A stretch of DNA of 64,000 nt from the NCBI RefSeq assembly GCF_054482525.1, contig NZ_JBTHVG010000004.1. One strand, written 5' to 3'. A model generated the notes under the pieces. It was not told where the DNA came from. It saw only the letters and a program-made list of their open reading frames with translations, and did not search any database. A program made the translations under genes and the position numbers. This document shows positions 2,454-20,003 of this stretch, piece after piece. Each line of letters opens with the position of its first letter. The stretch's first letter is position 1. The DNA is from a plasmid.

Positions 2454-2914
2454 ACCAGGCATGTATATTTTACGCAGGGACATGCCGGTCATGATCGTTT
2501 CGTTCCAGGGGTGGTCTGGAGATCATGCGGTGTGCTCCCTGCTCTCGCCGGAATAAGGACGTCGCCGCCGGCTCCGCTTTTACCCGGCCATGCGGGGCAT
2601 GGCCTTGTGGGTTTTCAGTTATGTGGCCTCAGCGTCGTGTGCGGGCTGTGCCGTGCCTCCATCGTAGCCGGGCTTCTGCGGGCGGGTTGCAAGGTAAGGT
2701 GAACCGCTGCGGTCACCCGGTCCCTCCTTCCCGTCCGCCGTGATTTTCCGGTCGTTCACCCGCTCAGATTTCGCGGTCTCACCCTCCAACTCCCGCCAGC
2801 CGTGTGCGTCAGGCTGCGGCTTCCCTTGCGCCCTTGCAACCCTGCAGGCCCGGCAAAGATGGAGGCACGGCACCGCCCGGTGTCGCAGAACATGTGACTA
2901 TGGAGGATTCGGGA

Positions 2915-3415
2915 ATGTCTGTTGTTGCACCTGCTGTATACGTTGGAACCTGGCACAAATACAACTGTGGAAGCATCGCCGGACGCTGGTTTGACCTGAC
3001 CACGTTTGATGATGAGCGCGACTTTTTCGCCGCCTGCCGTGCTCTTCACCAGGATGAAGCCGATCCTGAACTGATGTTTCAGGATTATGAGGGATTCCCG
3101 GGGAATATGGCCTCTGAATGCCATATCAACTGGGCCTGGGTTGAAGGCTTCCGCCAGGCACGGGATGAAGGCTGCGAAGAGGCTTATCGTCTCTGGGTGG
3201 AGGATACCGGTGAGACGGATTTTGACACCTTCCGCGATGCCTGGTGGGGCGAGGCTGACAGTGAGGAGGCTTTTGCGGTTGAGTTCGCCAGTGATACCGG
3301 CCTGCTGGCTGACGTGCCGGAGACGGTGGCGCTCTATTTTGACTATGAGGCGTATGCGCGGGATTTATTCCTGGACTCCTTCACCTTTATTGACGGTCAT
3401 GTGTTCCGTCGGTGA
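2915..3415 (+). CDS. ardA: ArdA antirestriction protein (type I restriction inhibitor, DNA mimic)
   Basis: 166 aa from the internal ATG at 2915 (MSVVAPAVYVGTWHKYNCGSIAGRWFDLTTFDDERDFF...), matching ArdA length and acidic composition; the longer 2804 start runs into a GC-rich leader. Confidence 0.9.
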   Translation: MSVVAPAVYVGTWHKYNCGSIAGRWFDLTTFDDERDFFAACRALHQDEADPELMFQDYEGFPGNMASECHINWAWVEGFRQARDEGCEEAYRLWVEDTGETDFDTFRDAWWGEADSEEAFAVEFASDTGLLADVPETVALYFDYEAYARDLFLDSFTFIDGHVFRR

Positions 3416-3770
3416 TTTACTCCCCCGCTCCGGCGGGGGTATGGCCTGCCAGGCCGCCGGAAAACCCTGGCAGGCTTACGCCTGCCTGAAATGCAGGAGG
3501 GCCGCGCCTGCGGCGCTGCCCTTCCTGCCCGTCATGGTGTGAGGCATTTTTCTGTTATGTCGTTTCTGTTGTTCTGATTTCCGGAGGCGGGGACACCTTC
3601 GGCTCCCGGCTGCCTGGCGGCATCCGGTCGTCAGGCCCGACTCCGACAGGCAGCTGCTGGCGCACCCGCCAGTCTCCGCCGAACCCGCTGGCGCGGTTTC
3701 GGGCTGCCGCTACGGTCCGATGTCTGAAAAACCAGGCTTGCAGCGACCGTTCCGGTCGCGCCGCCCCTGT

Positions 3771-15946: not shown

Positions 15947-17155
15947 TCAGAATTCGTTGTCTGTAGCAGGTGTGCGGGGCAGGATGTCGTCGGTGAGGGA
16001 CCAGTTGGTCAGGATGCGGCGTTTCCGGTCGCGATCTGGTTGTGGTTCATCCCAGATAAGACCGAGACTGAGCATATCCCGCCGTAAGCCTTCCACCGCT
16101 TCATCAACACAGGGTTCAGGGCAGGGAAGACCAAAACGCATGGCTTCGGCCTCTGCACGTGCAACGGCCACCACGCCAGCGCCTTCAATAAATCCTTTCG
16201 TGGTATTGGCGCGGTGTAATGCATAAAACAGCGTTCTGTCCACGCCTTTCAGCCAAATCCAGTTGGGTGGCGTAAGCCGCAGGTCATGTGCATACAGCCA
16301 GACCAGCCCACTGCGGACGTAGCGATGTTGTTTCAGCCATTGCTGTGCTCCGTTGCTTTTAATCACTCTCTGGAAAGCTGATTTGGCCAGTGAATAAACA
16401 GGGGTACAGAATTTCCCGCTGTCCCGTTTGCTTTTAATTCTGCATGAGAGGTTCAGTGTATCCATGAGCTTTAATGCTGCCTTCCGATCATCCAGGAAAT
16501 ACTGAAGGCCAAATATGGCAAAGAGCGCTTTTTCATGTGGTGCCATGTCTTTCCAGGACGTTAAAGGTTTACCCAACTGGGCCATGAAACATCGTCTTGC
16601 AGCTGCAACATCGAGCTGCATATTGGTGATGAGAGTATGCTGTTCGACAAATGCTTCCGGGGTGAGAGCAACCCGCCGTTCAGGTCGTTTACCACCATGA
16701 AAGAGTTTTTTCGGATCACCATCTGCCAGTACAGGGGCGATAGCAGGGGATAACGAAGCAAAGATGTGTGGCAGTCGGGTAATATCTACTGGTCTGCGGG
16801 TGAAACGGCTTTGTCCCGGATGTTGATACCATTCCCACAAACACCAGAGTGTCACAGGTAAGAGGTACATCCACAGAATACCTATGGTCTGTTCCATGAC
16901 GTTAACCCACTGGCTATAGCTTATGTTGGCGGCGTTGTTACCGGTCATGGCAAGCAGGTTGTATCGTGGTGCTGCATAGTTATGAAATGGTCCCCAGTCG
17001 ACCAGTCCCCATAAGGTATGAAGAATCAGGCAGCTGGTGTAAACCACTTCCGGCAAGAATAACCATATGACGAATAGCAGCAGGATAAGAAGGACACCAA
17101 CAGCGCCCCATATCTGCATAGGATCTTCTGCGACAGGCTGTCGATTGTAAGACAT
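15947..17155 (-). CDS. trbA: TrbA, membrane protein (DotM/IcmP-like)
   Basis: 402 aa hydrophobic N-terminus; operon position upstream of trbB. Confidence 0.75.
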   Translation of the reverse strand: MSYNRQPVAEDPMQIWGAVGVLLILLLFVIWLFLPEVVYTSCLILHTLWGLVDWGPFHNYAAPRYNLLAMTGNNAANISYSQWVNVMEQTIGILWMYLLPVTLWCLWEWYQHPGQSRFTRRPVDITRLPHIFASLSPAIAPVLADGDPKKLFHGGKRPERRVALTPEAFVEQHTLITNMQLDVAAARRCFMAQLGKPLTSWKDMAPHEKALFAIFGLQYFLDDRKAALKLMDTLNLSCRIKSKRDSGKFCTPVYSLAKSAFQRVIKSNGAQQWLKQHRYVRSGLVWLYAHDLRLTPPNWIWLKGVDRTLFYALHRANTTKGFIEGAGVVAVARAEAEAMRFGLPCPEPCVDEAVEGLRRDMLSLGLIWDEPQPDRDRKRRILTNWSLTDDILPRTPATDNEF

Positions 17156-17252
17156 GACAAAGTCTCCATTTCTGGAATTTAAATCAAACGGAAAGGTTAA
17201 AAATTTATTTGCAGGCGATAAGAGCTAACCAGAGGAATTAGCCGTGTGATAA

Positions 17253-17420
17253 AAGGATTGTTGCAGATACGAAAGTCGTTAGAATAGCCGCGGACGCTTG
17301 AGGCTGTATGCCGAAAGCGTTTTGTGGATGGTATACAGCAGAAAGCCCCCTGGAGATTTTTTATCAATCAACCAGGGGCTCTACTGTAATGCCTAGACAA
17401 CATTATAGTAGCCTGATAAT
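17253..17420 (+). repeat. partial duplicate of the pnd leader region (no toxin ORF)
   Basis: About 170 bp that matches 18672..18845 with roughly ten differences by eye, then diverges just before the position of the pndA start. Confidence 0.6.
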
Positions 17421-17461
17421 TTAGATATGTGTACATCCTACCGGAAAAGATACTTTTCAGG

Positions 17462-18553
17462 TCATTTATCAATGGGTGTTATTACCACCGGTAGTTTGTT
17501 TACGTCTTCTAAATTAACTGGTACCGGAGGTAACCATATTAATCTAGGTTTACGCTCATGGGCTAGTTCTGGTTTCTTACTTCCTGTCCAGTATGTATGC
17601 CAGTGTCCCCGGCGTATATGAGGACGTTTGCTACCTATTGTTGTCCGCTCTTTCCCTGTGGGTTCTGCTTGGCGATATTGCCGTATGGCTTGCCCCATTC
17701 GAATACCAACGTCCCACTCCCGAATGTTTTGTGCTGGTAGTTCATGGTGAGTGTGAACATGCTTTTTGTGCTTTTCTGACCGTTTAAATTGATTTTTTTC
17801 TTTTATATCATTGATCTGTGAACAGATATAAAGCACCATTGATATCTGTGCGTTAAGAAGATTAAACTCCCTGTCTCTGAAATCTTTGAGCTTTTCGTTA
17901 ACTGTTACGACGACTTCACCATCGATACACTCCATCTTTCTGGAGTCAAGAAGTCCTTCACGAGAGTCCTTTATTCTGATGATATTATTGACGACGTCAA
18001 CATCCTTTTCTTTTAGCCCTGTAGTTCCTTGACTTTGTTTCAGATCATCAATAATGAAAAGCCGGATAATATTTCCATTATTGTCCAAAAATGGATAAAA
18101 GAAAAATCCATGTATCGGATAGGACGTAGGAAGTATAGTATGCAGATTTTCGGCTGAAACATAGATACTCCATGAAGGGAGTTCCTTGAGGATCTGTGCA
18201 GGAATGTTATCAACATAGGTGTTAGCCACATCACTGATGATGTCCTCGCTTAGGCGATAAATTTTCTTTGTATAGCGCCAGTATATAAAACACAAAATAC
18301 TGTGTGGTGACGATAATTCGTTTCCATGAAATAAAGATTCTAGTTTAGAAGCCAGTTCTTCATTTTTTTGTTGGCTCTGGAGACGACTCATTAGTATGCG
18401 TTCTTCATCTTTTCTGTCGATAAATAATAATGGATTGTCGCTGCGTTTTTTATTTCGGCATGCAAAGATTTGCTCTTCAAGCCCAGGGATTGTGTTGATG
18501 ACTTTTTTTATCTTTTTCAGGAAAATAGGTTGTTTTAACTGCGACATTTCCAT
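17462..18553 (-). CDS. AT-rich cargo gene, 363 aa protein of unknown function
   Basis: Clean ORF with AT-rich codon usage unlike neighbouring trbA; basic His/Trp-rich C-terminal block (RPHIRRGHWHTYWTGSKKPE...RKPRLIWLPPVP); lies between the two pnd-leader copies. Confidence 0.65.
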   Translation of the reverse strand: MEMSQLKQPIFLKKIKKVINTIPGLEEQIFACRNKKRSDNPLLFIDRKDEERILMSRLQSQQKNEELASKLESLFHGNELSSPHSILCFIYWRYTKKIYRLSEDIISDVANTYVDNIPAQILKELPSWSIYVSAENLHTILPTSYPIHGFFFYPFLDNNGNIIRLFIIDDLKQSQGTTGLKEKDVDVVNNIIRIKDSREGLLDSRKMECIDGEVVVTVNEKLKDFRDREFNLLNAQISMVLYICSQINDIKEKNQFKRSEKHKKHVHTHHELPAQNIREWDVGIRMGQAIRQYRQAEPTGKERTTIGSKRPHIRRGHWHTYWTGSKKPELAHERKPRLIWLPPVPVNLEDVNKLPVVITPIDK

Positions 18554-18671
18554 CTCCTAAGGGGATTCTTTTATTAACTAAAATCAGCATAACATGCGTT
18601 GTTGTGAAGTAGAGAACCATGTATTGGGTTGGTTGTTAACTTCAAAAACAACGCTGAATCATTCAAATAAT

Positions 18672-18864
18672 AAAAGGATTGTTACAGATACGAAAGTCGT
18701 TAGAATAGCTGCGGGCGCTTGAGGCTGTATGCCGAAAGCGTTTTGTGGACGGTATACAGCAGAAAGCCCCTGGAGATTTTTTTATCAATCAACCAAGGGC
18801 TCTACTGTAATGCCTCAACAACATTATAGTAGCCCGATAACCGCCGGAAGGCAATGGAGGGGCT
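18672..18864 (+). promoter_or_regulatory. pnd leader region (mok/pndC-like overlapping frame and probable antisense RNA pndB)
   Basis: Conserved leader directly upstream of pndA; in hok/sok-type loci this region carries the antisense RNA and the translational-coupling ORF. RNA ends were not mapped. Confidence 0.45.
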
Positions 18865-18867
18865 ATG

Positions 18868-19020
18868 ATGCCACAGCGAACGTTTTTAATGATGTTAATC
18901 GTCGTCTGTGTGACGATTCTGTGTTTTGTCTGGATGGTGAGGGATTCGCTTTGCGGACTCCGGCTCCAGCAGGGAAACACAGTGCTTGTGGCAACGTTAG
19001 CCTACGAAGTTAAACGTTAA
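18868..19020 (+). CDS. pndA: PndA, Hok-family type I toxin
   Basis: 50 aa hydrophobic peptide MPQRTFLMMLIVVCVTILCFVWMVRDSLCGLRLQQGNTVLVATLAYEVKR, typical of Hok/SrnB/PndA; not in the ORF track because it is under 60 aa. Confidence 0.8.
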   Translation: MPQRTFLMMLIVVCVTILCFVWMVRDSLCGLRLQQGNTVLVATLAYEVKR

Positions 19021-19091
19021 CGGGCAACACGGCGGCAGGTTTTCTGCCGCCGCTTTGTTGCGAAGGCTGACCTCATTGCGCCCTTTCTTCT

Positions 19092-19343
19092 TCAATGAAG
19101 CGTATCTGGTATTGTTTCATTTTCCCTGAAGCCGATTAGCTCCAGCCGAATGCCTTTGCCATCGGGGGCCACGTTCTGCATTTCGCAGATACCACGTCGG
19201 GTCATGAGTGTGAAGGCTGTCATTGCCAGCATGGCTAACGCGTTTTCCTCGCTTCCGCTGCGTTTCTCGAGAGCATCGGCAATTTCTTCTATGCTCCCCA
19301 CCTGAAAGCAAGAGTCGAATTCTTTACTCCACTTTTCTGACAT
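19092..19343 (-). CDS. hypothetical protein (83 aa)
   Basis: ORF only; no recognisable domain. Confidence 0.35.
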   Translation of the reverse strand: MSEKWSKEFDSCFQVGSIEEIADALEKRSGSEENALAMLAMTAFTLMTRRGICEMQNVAPDGKGIRLELIGFRENETIPDTLH

Positions 19344-19495
19344 CGGATTTTCTCTCTGTATTTATGGGTAGTTATCGAACTGAATGTGCCAGTTTTTTCA
19401 GGAGACGGCAAAGTTGAGATGATTGGTTCTGATTCAAAGCATGAGTTTCCCCGGTGTGACGGGCATGTCGGGCGGATTTTGAGAAACAACAGATG

Positions 19496-19530
19496 TAAAA
19501 AAACCGACTGGTGAGGTCGGTTTTTTTACT
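19496..19530. terminator. bidirectional terminator-like hairpin
   Basis: aaaaaaaccgac tggtgag gtcggttttttt: stem flanked by an A-run and a T-run. Confidence 0.5.
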
Positions 19531-19540
19531 GTTCCGTTAC

Positions 19541-19771
19541 AGAGTGGGTGGCTCTGGTCGGAAAAGAACTGTCTATAACTGACTTGTAGATAGTACGTCT
19601 GGAATTATATTTCTGCAAGTACTGGATAAGTGTATACTCGGCATGTCAGCTCTGAGGCATGTTCTGTCCGACATATTGTTCAGCGGGAAGAACAGGTTGC
19701 AAGTCCTGGCCAAAACATCAGGTGGTGCTGGTTTTGGTGCTCTGGTCGGAGAAGAACTGTCTATAACTGAC
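19541..19771. repeat. two copies of a 33 bp direct repeat (GCTCTGGTCGGARAAGAACTGTCTATAACTGAC) about 200 bp apart
   Basis: Copies at about 19541..19573 and 19739..19771 differ at one position. Confidence 0.5.
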
Positions 19772-20003
19772 ACTATAGAAACCGTTGTGACAGGCAGTGT
19801 AAGAGCGAACAACGGGGTTCTTTCTCCAGTGATGGAGAAGCGGATGATTAATCTGTTAATCATCGTTCTCAGGGCAGTAGTTGCCGTTGCAAACGCGCTG
19901 ATTGCTGTTCTGGAACTGATCCGGGAACTTATCGACTGATAAGCCTGGAAACGTAACTAAGGGCAGGGAGTTACCGCTTCCTGCCCTTTAACAAAAAGAG
20001 ATC

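Follow-up and report, generated by a model that had tools for sequence, protein, structure and literature searches.

The finQ sequence of IncI1 plasmids was reportedly given by Ham and Skurray in 1989. FinQ of these plasmids lowers the transcripts of the F tra operon, so that the transfer of F-like plasmids is inhibited (review; preprint), and the older literature describes this as Rho-independent transcription termination at several sites (review). FinW, PifC, Osa and FipA are likewise single accessory genes that reduce the transfer of an unrelated co-resident plasmid, but they are unrelated to FinQ in sequence and act on TraM transcription, the coupling protein or the degradation of transferred DNA (review). 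AcrVA2 of Moraxella bovoculi (PDB 7CI1 and 7CI2) is an anti-CRISPR that triggers a translation-dependent loss of the cas12a mRNA (preprint). Its activity is lost or reduced in the mutants W79A, H286A, R288A and H291A, and D89 gives a moderate mutant phenotype (preprint). FinQ is listed among the homologues in a preprint on AcrVA2. The surroundings of finQ are also described, since the same trbA-finQ-pndC/pndA structure is found in PMC8004404 and PMC2887853, the former with a 1250-bp FinQ insert and a duplicated 173-bp trbA-pndA intergenic sequence. The trbA-pndC locus of the IncI1 pMLST scheme is of variable length owing to this insertion. What was already published is thus finQ itself (1989), its link to AcrVA2 (2018, 2022-23) and the insertion with the duplicated trbA-pndA intergenic sequence (2008-2021).

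The stretch of DNA analysed here, called the window, is 64,000 nucleotides long and comes from a plasmid (contig NZ_JBTHVG010000004.1). It belongs to an IncI1-type conjugative plasmid; in a 100% identical plasmid the left flanking gene is labelled "IncI1-type conjugal transfer protein TrbA". The features of the locus are the following:

15947 to 17155, minus strand: trbA, an IncI1 conjugal transfer gene seen as an open reading frame, which borders the variable site on the left and belongs to the backbone.
17249 to 17419, plus strand: left pnd leader, truncated, with promoter hexamers, 5' leader and a truncated pndC' frame and no toxin ORF.
17330 to 17410, ends approximate, minus strand: predicted orphan pndB', a Sok-like antisense RNA, from sequence reading and RNA folding.
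17420 to 18669, no strand: finQ cassette, the unique insert of 1250 bp, missing from empty-site IncI1 plasmids in the alignment with one such locus (L002).
17462 to 18553, minus strand: finQ, longest ORF, 363 aa.
18554 to 18609, minus strand: finQ upstream region, conserved at the nucleotide level with finQ alleles of IncF and Serratia plasmids.
18670 to 18840, plus strand: right pnd leader, complete, running on into pndC/pndA, with the promoter TTGTTA-16-TAGAAT at 18679-18706.
18750 to 18853, ends approximate, minus strand: predicted pndB antisense RNA of the intact locus, from sequence, folding and analogy to hok/sok.
18865 (or 18868) to 19020, plus strand: pndA, a Hok/Gef-family toxin of 50-51 aa, from the ORF and the annotation "Hok/Gef family protein".

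It is very likely, in our view, that the locus as a whole is explained by finQ, an AcrVA2-like gene, on a cassette inserted once in the gap between trbA and pnd, with inhibition of the F tra operon as its function and the left leader as a by-product.

The AT-rich ORF of 363 aa that the earlier note had pointed out is present, with a GC content of 0.39 as compared to 0.51 for trbA; the 1250-bp insert as a whole has 0.385 and the window 0.49. It is the only substantial ORF of the insert. The insert is flanked by two copies of a direct repeat of 171 nt, at 17249-17419 and 18670-18840, which are 92% identical when compared ungapped. In the gapped alignment they show 8 substitutions and 2 single-base indels, that is 10 differences, about as many as the note had estimated, and 94% identity, and the longest run without a mismatch is 34 nt. 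An identity of 94% over 171 nt is far above chance expectation. The repeats had been placed at 17253..17420 and 18672..18845; they exist, but with shifted limits, the right copy stopping at 18840. Outside both ends of each copy the sequences are unrelated.

Both copies had been read as hok/sok-type pnd leaders, and this is borne out by the Rfam family RF01794 (hok/sok leader, gathering score 59 bits), which gives 84.6 bits for the left copy (17292-17449, with the last hairpin unmatched) and 132.8 bits for the right copy (18713-18870). Compared to pnd of the IncI plasmids R483 and R64, the right copy is complete, with leader, overlapping pndC frame (18729-19013), Hok/Gef ORF and, in the terminator scan, a terminator hairpin 3' of pndA at 19030-19052. 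The left copy corresponds to the first 171 nt, without the toxin ORF or the 3' fold-back element and with the native -35 of the predicted antisense promoter replaced, and its truncated pndC-like ORF (17308-17424) is 38 aa long. The right copy alone qualifies as a hok/sok (pnd) locus, and it was correctly seen as the only one leading into an intact pndA.

The cassette entered the pnd leader at its 3' edge, where it separates the -10 from the -35 of the predicted antisense pndB promoter. Since there is a 171-bp leader copy on either side, the sequence next to trbA is as in the empty-site plasmids and the toxin/antisense module to the right is complete. Uninterrupted pnd is seen at this position in the empty-site plasmids (L002, L014), which was the comparison with other IncI1 plasmids that the earlier note had proposed. 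The insertion with its duplicated leader beside pnd is thus real, but it is already known. An IS element or transposon with target-site duplication was considered and rejected; there is no transposase, and the duplication is 171 nt long and 6% diverged. A search for terminal inverted repeats at the ends of the insert found none.

The gene is finQ, an accessory fertility-inhibition gene of the AcrVA2-like family. Over 2 kb the sequence matches, at 100% identity, many IncI1 plasmids whose copy of the gene bears the annotation finQ, and the identical 363-aa protein has the NCBI name "protein finQ" and a precomputed PF26125 label. As compared to FinQ of the IncI1 plasmids R820a, R62 and ColIb-P9, it is the same gene in the same trbA-pndC/pndA position, with no biological difference. 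The identity to SwissProt FINQ_ECOLX is 83% over the full length. That entry has 342 aa, gaps and a garbled HxR motif, HIRRDTGIHT as compared to HIRRGHWHTYW here, and judged from the sequences these differences are most likely old sequencing errors. The earlier note could assign no family and suggested an undescribed defence or anti-defence function; the gene is called FinQ by PGAP, the annotation pipeline of NCBI, is FINQ_ECOLX in SwissProt and is a member of PF26125, and fertility inhibition is its described role. With a name and a family already in place, it is therefore not an undescribed gene of either kind.

The probable start of finQ is the second ATG, at 18547, because a Shine-Dalgarno sequence, AGGAG, is situated 6 nt upstream of it, and the product would then be 361 aa. 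The SwissProt FinQ begins at M3 of the 363-aa ORF, and the homologues of FinQ are 360-361 aa long with the N-terminus MSQLK. PGAP calls finQ only at 17462-18241, with the ATC codon at 18241 as start and a product of 259 aa, an error seen in the RefSeq records examined here. The 259-aa form is without the invariant W92, and cloning from that annotation would therefore probably yield a dead protein. By blastn, finQ of IncF and Serratia plasmids (L010-L012) is homologous over 18609..17462, upstream region included. In this upstream region there are the Shine-Dalgarno sequence and what may be an extended -10 (TGTTATGCT). A finQ promoter may be situated at this extended -10, which the consensus promoter scan did not flag. 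The distal end of 18554..18609 is what is left of the 3' end of a DUF2913 gene, which is situated ahead of finQ in the IncF and Serratia plasmids.

The PF26125 family is labelled AcrVA2-like in the database, and the assignment of FinQ to it is built on precomputed database labels together with sequence and fold matches in the PDB. A phmmer comparison of FinQ with AcrVA2 (PDB 7ci1) gave an E-value of 3.9e-17 over two stretches, residues 85-160 and 232-347. Structure prediction, which the earlier note had put forward as a check, turned out to be informative: the AlphaFold model (pLDDT 76.9, pTM 0.80) matched AcrVA2 in a Foldseek search of the PDB, 7ci2_A with E 1.5e-11 and 7ci1_A with E 6.2e-11, at a probability of 1.00 and TM 0.52-0.64. 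The AcrVA2 entries were the only significant ones in this search, the next best having E 0.44. The identity between the two proteins is low, about 18-20%, and they are homologous over most of their length. In an alignment of 23 homologues W92, H312, R314, R315 and H317 are invariant. W92 aligns with AcrVA2 W79, H312/R314 with H286/R288, and H317 corresponds to H291 by its position in the shared motif PHIRRGHWH, so that the required residues W79, H286, R288 and H291 are all matched. D89 of AcrVA2 faces a Ser in FinQ and is not conserved. A phage protein family, phrog_6160, is also homologous to FinQ (E 9.6e-48). The Pfam-A scan found no family, with a local library that may predate PF26125; the NCBIfam scan found none either, and the PADLOC scan gave only an insignificant match (E 0.0086). 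By sequence, modelled fold and conserved residues taken together, FinQ is to be placed in the AcrVA2-like family.

Inhibition of F transfer by this copy of finQ is predicted from its sequence identity to the IncI1 gene that was studied. The AcrVA2-like fold and the aligned residues that have been mutated in AcrVA2 suggest, as the most likely mechanism, that FinQ recognises a Tra polypeptide, probably during its synthesis, and that this recognition would lead to the loss of that tra mRNA. FinQ and AcrVA2 are alike in that each of them reduces the mRNA from genes of a competitor (preprint, review). They differ in target, the transfer operon of the F plasmid as compared to Cas12a, and in carrier, a conjugative plasmid as compared to a prophage. 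The mechanism is extrapolated from a protein of only about 18-20% identity whose N-terminal region, presumed to recognise the target, is different, and the translation dependence is a feature of AcrVA2 that would apply to FinQ by analogy.

The classical model, in which FinQ binds nucleic acid and directly causes premature Rho-independent termination in F tra, irrespective of the translation of the target, would explain the same drop in mRNA by another molecular route. FinQ is basic, with a pI of 9.2, and Arg, His and Trp are abundant in its C-terminus, a feature that the earlier note had taken as a sign of nucleic-acid binding. This stretch is instead the HxR motif of the family, which in AcrVA2 is needed for the down-regulation of the target mRNA. 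Furthermore, the fold search found no known DNA- or RNA-binding fold, AcrVA2 being the sole significant match, and AcrVA2 acts independently of promoter and codons, needs the amino-acid sequence of its target and requires the same C-terminal HxR residues (preprint). Termination and decay cannot be told apart by a lower level of downstream mRNA. We regard the classical model as rather unlikely, and a DNA- or RNA-binding terminator would appear less likely than AcrVA2-like recognition of a polypeptide. Membership in the same family as AcrVA2, and the existence of the homologous phage family, could also be taken to mean that the product is directed against Cas12a as an anti-CRISPR, in line with the UniRef name "AcrVA2 family anti-CRISPR protein", or that the gene is a new one of phage defence or anti-defence. 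It is extremely unlikely that this is so, as the homologues of AcrVA2 are typically found in contexts free of Cas12a and are most divergent in the N-terminal region (preprint), what has been documented for FinQ is that it inhibits F transfer (preprint, review), and PADLOC gave no significant match.

The gene is accessory: at least 80% of the 2-kb query is present in 391 of 1954 matching plasmid records, and the site is empty or differently occupied in other plasmids. The alternative considered in the earlier note, a backbone gene found in all relatives, is not the case; only a minority of the relatives have it. Of 550 records with FinQ, 512 plasmids contain the left junction and 497 the right one, and in 373 of the 374 E. 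coli records the identity of finQ is 99% or more. The insertion was one event, followed by spread among plasmids of the IncI complex, because almost all carriers have both junctions in common. The leader alleles are mosaic across the plasmids and were reshuffled by recombination and gene conversion after the insertion. Most of the differences between the left and right leaders are allelic polymorphisms also present in empty-site plasmids, and 3 substitutions are private to left copies. No hok/sok leader was found near the distant finQ homologues (a Kosakonia chromosome, a Serratia contig, a metagenome contig and IncFII, IncFIB and Serratia plasmids), where the nucleotide homology ends at the limits of the ORF. 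The association with pnd is therefore local and not ancestral to the gene.

The same gap between trbA and pnd is filled by an unrelated cargo gene in 103 plasmids (the L004/L016 type). Its protein is unrelated to FinQ and has only RHH and HTH regulator-like domains, and no relatives of it were found in the PDB. One of these loci, L016, is derived from the L004 type by a deletion, and in another plasmid (L017) pnd is replaced by a type II toxin-antitoxin pair. As seen in the deletion that gave L016 and in the mosaic leader alleles, recombination between leader repeats does occur. The direct repeats imply that a unit of 1421 bp, the insert and one repeat, could be gained or lost by homologous recombination.

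How the cassette came in, and whether the left leader does anything, can be considered together. The earlier note had thought of recombination between the pnd loci of two plasmids. A single crossover of the Campbell type, in which the resident pnd leader recombined with a circular or co-integrated molecule that had finQ beside the pnd-like leader of another plasmid, would leave direct repeats exactly bracketing the insert, as observed, and the repeats would be hybrid alleles. The 6% divergence of the copies, the 6 out of 8 diagnostic sites at which an empty-site allele (L002) agrees with the right copy, and the second cargo cassette, which also has a pnd-leader fragment and recombined through it, are in line with this. 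On the other hand, an empty-site plasmid (L014) has most of the left-type variants as well, and these are inconsistent among left copies, only the 3 private substitutions being left; an old duplication in situ followed by drift and gene conversion fits the data just as well. The searches gave no donor in which finQ adjoins an intact pnd-like locus. Nor did a chimeric query of left leader and pndA find an intact pnd locus with the whole left-copy allele; the best full-length match, 98.0%, was like ordinary empty-site alleles. The Campbell-type crossover is thus possible, if somewhat doubtful. Whatever the route, the host would be harmed or killed if the antisense promoter of a killer locus were broken, and therefore only insertions that leave an intact pnd would survive, so that the left copy may most simply be regarded as a by-product of the insertion.

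It is improbable, in our judgement, that the left leader is instead functional, as the source of an additional PndB-like antisense RNA, of a shortened pndA leader transcript or of both, and thereby alters the toxin/antitoxin balance of pnd or controls finQ convergently. In that case finQ would be wired into the type I toxin-antitoxin module, which is what the earlier note had proposed. The left copy retains the pndA promoter hexamers of functional empty-site alleles (TTGTTG at 17258-17263, a 16-nt spacer and TAGAAT at 17280-17285), and the predicted antisense RNA is whole, an extra C and an A-to-G change keeping the hairpin pairing. The predicted pndB' keeps its -10 (TACTAT/TATAAT, 17410-17402) and terminator hairpin, and the native -35 is swapped for cassette DNA, TACACA, with 4/6 matches at a spacing of 17 nt. 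In the intact locus the predicted pndB has its -35, TTGCCT, at 18853-18848, outside the repeat, its -10 (TACTAT/TATAAT) at 18831-18823 and the terminator hairpin next to it, and it would be transcribed towards finQ. The search for terminators covered the stretch from the left leader to the 3' end of finQ and the region upstream of the gene, and it gave weak hairpins only (z -0.5, -2.1 and +0.1), which speak neither for nor against insulation. With promoter hexamers retained and no convincing terminator, antisense transcription from the left leader into finQ is possible. The left copy is kept in about 500 plasmids, but this is to be expected anyway from a single recent origin and an identity of at least 99%. 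Moreover, the left copies differ between plasmids and have traded blocks with other alleles, no constraint is visible in them, the finQ homologues elsewhere work without a hok/sok neighbour, and the promoters of the left copy, like those proposed for pndB and pndB', are consensus matches.

A broader reading, that the pnd leader is a portable homology patch by which plasmids of the IncI complex acquire, lose and swap single competition genes, and that an active left copy, through an orphan PndB-like RNA and a convergent transcript, tunes finQ and the killer locus, appears quite improbable. If true, the leader of a type I toxin-antitoxin locus would also act as a place of recombination and as an element that regulates the cargo. 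The genes exchanged would be finQ, in about 500 plasmids, and the RHH/HTH regulator-like gene, in about 100.

Returning to the single insertion of an AcrVA2-like finQ with a by-product leader, the additions made here are the common junctions in about 500 plasmids, the mosaic leaders, the second cargo in 103 plasmids, the truncated 259-aa PGAP product and the likely product of 361 aa. The value as a discovery is small. The finQ insertion affects the typing scheme of IncI1 plasmids. With FinQ there is also a system, accessible in E. coli, in which one can ask if the destruction of mRNA guided by the nascent peptide, as proposed for AcrVA2, is general in plasmid conflicts. The gene is found in about 7% of complete E. 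coli genomes and is broken in nearly half of those that have it, often by ISEcp1-blaCMY, and such breakage may allow co-resident F-like resistance plasmids to spread with less restraint.

The insertion between trbA and pnd contains a single substantial gene, is flanked by two copies of the pnd leader, and has the following neighbours.

Features of the trbA-pnd region in the window
17249-17419, left pnd leader copy, direct repeat (171 nt, repeat search)
17420-18669, finQ insert, 1250 bp between the leader copies
17462..18553, minus strand, finQ open reading frame (363 aa), the sole substantial one of the insert
18670-18840, right pnd leader copy, direct repeat (171 nt, repeat search)
18865/18868-19020, pndA, Hok/Gef toxin open reading frame, reached from the right leader copy only
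19030-19052, pndA terminator, after the toxin frame
19495-19582, minus strand, AgrB-like antisense RNA (Rfam RF02891, 53.7 bits)
about 19844-19939, plus strand, dqlB, DinQ-like toxin gene of a second type I toxin-antitoxin module right of pnd (19495-19939)

The anatomy described in the earlier note is confirmed. The direct repeats of about 170 bp are present, with the earlier coordinates off by a few bases, and the divergence at roughly ten positions corresponds to 8 substitutions and 2 single-base indels in a gapped alignment, the longest identical stretch being 34 nt. Sequence beyond both repeat ends is unrelated between the copies. Both are leaders of the hok/sok type, scoring 132.8 (right) and 84.6 bits (left) against Rfam RF01794 with its gathering score of 59 bits, and an intact pndA follows the right copy alone. 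The minus-strand gene is indeed AT-rich, the insert having a GC content of 0.385, trbA 0.51 and the whole window 0.49.

The gene is finQ, and its product belongs to the AcrVA2 family and retains the key residues. A megablast search of 72,556 plasmids with 17100-19100 as query gave 100% identical IncI1-type conjugative plasmids annotating it as 'finQ: protein FinQ', and the identical 363-aa protein stands for a cluster (829 sequences) that bears the name 'protein finQ' and has a precomputed match to Pfam PF26125, labelled 'AcrVA2-like'. A PDB sequence search matched it to AcrVA2 (7ci1, E 3.9e-17), and the AcrVA2 structures were the sole significant fold matches of the AlphaFold model (pLDDT 76.9, pTM 0.80, 23 homologues), with E 1.5e-11, probability 1.00 and TM 0.52-0.64; the next match had E 0.44. 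The protein is thus not without an assignable family, as had been thought. It also matches the uncharacterised phage family phrog_6160 in PHROGs (E 9.6e-48); local Pfam-A and NCBIfam scans of the protein gave no match, and PADLOC nothing significant. The basic His/Trp-rich C-terminus, read earlier as suggesting nucleic-acid binding, is real and is the functional motif of the family: the residues invariant in the 23-homologue alignment are W92, P126, Y242, G283, P311, H312, R314, R315, H317, G324, W340 and P343.

The FinQ product is probably 361 aa, since SwissProt FinQ and all close homologues (360-361 aa) begin at the second ATG (18547, MSQLK...) and the Shine-Dalgarno AGGAG lies 6 nt upstream of it, while abutting the first (18553). 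The PGAP call in the annotations of L001 and of L013, another finQ plasmid, is 780 bp (17462-18241, 259 aa) with an ATC start codon at 18241. This model is almost certainly a mis-call; it drops residues 1-104, including the family-invariant W92. The SwissProt entry FINQ_ECOLX (342 aa) is 83% identical to the window protein over its full length, and the differences, gaps and locally scrambled stretches, look typical of early sequence. In the region of residues 310-325 this 1989 reference reads HIRRDTGIHT--DRS as compared to HIRRGHWHTYWTGS in all modern homologues, and it also lacks 16 residues around position 55-70; both are probably sequencing errors in a curated reference, falling in the functional motif.

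The cassette between the leader repeats was acquired once. Any part of the 2-kb query was matched by 1954 plasmid records, and at least 80% of it by 391; most IncI-type records match the trbA and pnd parts only, so that their site is empty. By tblastn FinQ was found in 550 plasmid records (394 full length), and in many of the others an ISEcp1-blaCMY element interrupts it at residue 115. Probes of 100 nt across the junctions were present in 512 (left, at at least 80% coverage) and 497 plasmids (right). As almost all carriers have both junctions in common, essentially all of them go back to one insertion event. Among complete E. coli genomes 369 of 5,426 have finQ, intact in only 197, and in 373 of 374 E. 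coli records it is at least 99% identical. The position at which finQ is often broken corresponds to about 17804 in the window (finQ nt 750, residue 115); the interrupting element is ISEcp1-blaCMY with sugE and blc, as in the finQ plasmid L003, in agreement with the previously reported ISEcp1-blaCMY-2 hot spot.

As in hok/sok, an antisense RNA, here PndB, is predicted to be transcribed from the minus strand. The predicted pndB -10 (TACTAT/TATAAT) and terminator hairpin are inside the repeat. On the right the -35 (TTGCCT, 17-nt spacer) is just outside it, and on the left it is replaced by cassette DNA, TACACA, which places the cassette exactly between the predicted -10 and -35. A plain insertion at that point would cut pndA off from promoter and leader and harm the promoter that drives the antitoxin of a killer locus. 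With the duplication, the right side has a full pnd module and the side towards trbA keeps its native sequence. This, we infer, explains why no other form of the insertion is seen.

It is conceivable that the cassette came from a second plasmid by a Campbell-type event, in which case the two leaders would be hybrids of alleles from two plasmids. The leader alleles do not divide cleanly into resident and foreign. The single leader of the empty-site plasmid L002 has the upstream flank of the left copy and the downstream flank of the right, and within the repeat the right-copy state at 6 diagnostic sites and the left-copy state at 2; the empty-site plasmid L014 has a left-type central block; and the left copies of L013 and L003 differ from that of the window. 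All left copies have just three private substitutions in common, and no intact pnd locus was found to carry the left allele in full (best 98.0%). The alleles are mosaics, which is what continuing recombination and gene conversion between IncI plasmids would produce. The left copy could alternatively be active: it retains the pndA promoter hexamers of functional empty-site alleles and no convincing terminator was found between it and finQ, so antisense transcripts may run convergently into finQ, and an orphan antisense RNA may also be made. It is probably a scar.

The genomic surroundings of close and distant finQ homologues are unrelated: a chromosomal island of Kosakonia, a Serratia contig that also has colicin M, and IncFII, IncFIB and Serratia plasmids. 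None of the loci examined has a hok/sok leader nearby. finQ is therefore a mobile single gene, and its association with pnd is peculiar to IncI plasmids. Nucleotide homology to other alleles is limited to the reading frame and 56 bp upstream (18609-17462). The IncF and Serratia plasmids have, on the same strand and 44 bp upstream of finQ, a DUF2913 gene of which the IncI1 cassette keeps only the last 20 bp or so (about 18590-18609); this gene could be an operon partner, lost from the cassette. In L010-L012 (IncFII Enterobacter, IncFIB Salmonella and Serratia plasmids; 2836-3456) the homologue has about 78% nucleotide identity, with DUF2913 upstream, and is followed by a 220-aa hypothetical gene. 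In the Kosakonia sp. MUSA4 chromosome (L006, 1-7178) it is 77% identical and adjoins a tyrosine integrase, a CAP12-PCTIR_TIR-domain gene and a CbtA toxin, a defence-island-like setting and not a conjugative plasmid.

In 103 plasmids the trbA-pnd gap holds another gene, of 317-328 aa and unrelated to FinQ (L004, CP088700.1, 2607-4131; also L016, NZ_CP019215.2). In its protein a FitA-like ribbon-helix-helix domain (Pfam E 3e-6) at the N-terminus is accompanied by an XRE/DicA-like helix-turn-helix region; no PDB relative was found, and the C-terminal part had no family match. On the right, this cargo and the finQ cassette join the pnd leader at identical junctions, and the cargo DNA also contains a partial leader fragment. 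L016 is an L004-type allele in which this fragment has recombined with the complete leader, with loss of the 296 bp between them; comparison of the two alleles is direct evidence of recombination between leader repeats here. The hybrid leader (L016 2812-2899, L004 3918-4301) lacks the usual pndA promoter and 5' end, and pndA may not be normally expressed there. In the IncI-gamma/K1 plasmid L017 (NZ_CP025846.1, 3693-4344) a type II toxin/MqsA-family antitoxin pair stands beside trbA, replacing pnd; the position seems to accept different stability modules. Right of pnd, the AgrB-like RNA would be able to pair with the toxin mRNA leader through a direct repeat of 33 nt (19551-19583 and 19739-19771, 97% identical).

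The suggestion that the gene has an undescribed function does not hold, as inhibition of F transfer by FinQ is already in the literature. FinQ lowers the tra operon mRNA and the transfer of F-like plasmids; a preprint (10.1101/2022.11.29.518452) recalls both effects for F, names FinQ of E. coli plasmids an AcrVA2 homologue and overlays the predicted structures, with a conserved HxR motif. There, AcrVA2 is shown to recognise Cas12a by its N-terminal polypeptide and to bring about a loss of cas12a mRNA that depends on translation, an activity impaired by W79A, H286A, R288A and H291A. W79 aligns with W92 of FinQ and the HxR motif is common to both, whereas the mRNA affected is cas12a in one case and the F tra operon in the other. 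By analogy, FinQ would most likely recognise a Tra polypeptide, probably co-translationally, and its HxR-containing C-terminal domain would trigger loss of the mRNA. A direct termination factor is the other, less likely model; the 1989 finQ study, as summarised in a review, reported Rho-independent termination at several F tra operon sites. An anti-Cas12a or defence role is a further, unlikely alternative.

Through the leader repeats the 1421-bp unit could be lost and regained in a RecA-dependent manner. All of this, the gene, its family and the flanking duplication, is known already: PMC8004404 reports a FinQ insert of 1250 bp together with a duplicated 173-bp stretch between trbA and pndA, and in the pMLST scheme the length of the IncI1 locus trbA-pndC varies owing to the finQ insertion (PMC2887853). 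The most useful by-products are the single origin with mosaic leader alleles, the second cargo allele at the trbA-pnd site and the PGAP truncation of finQ.
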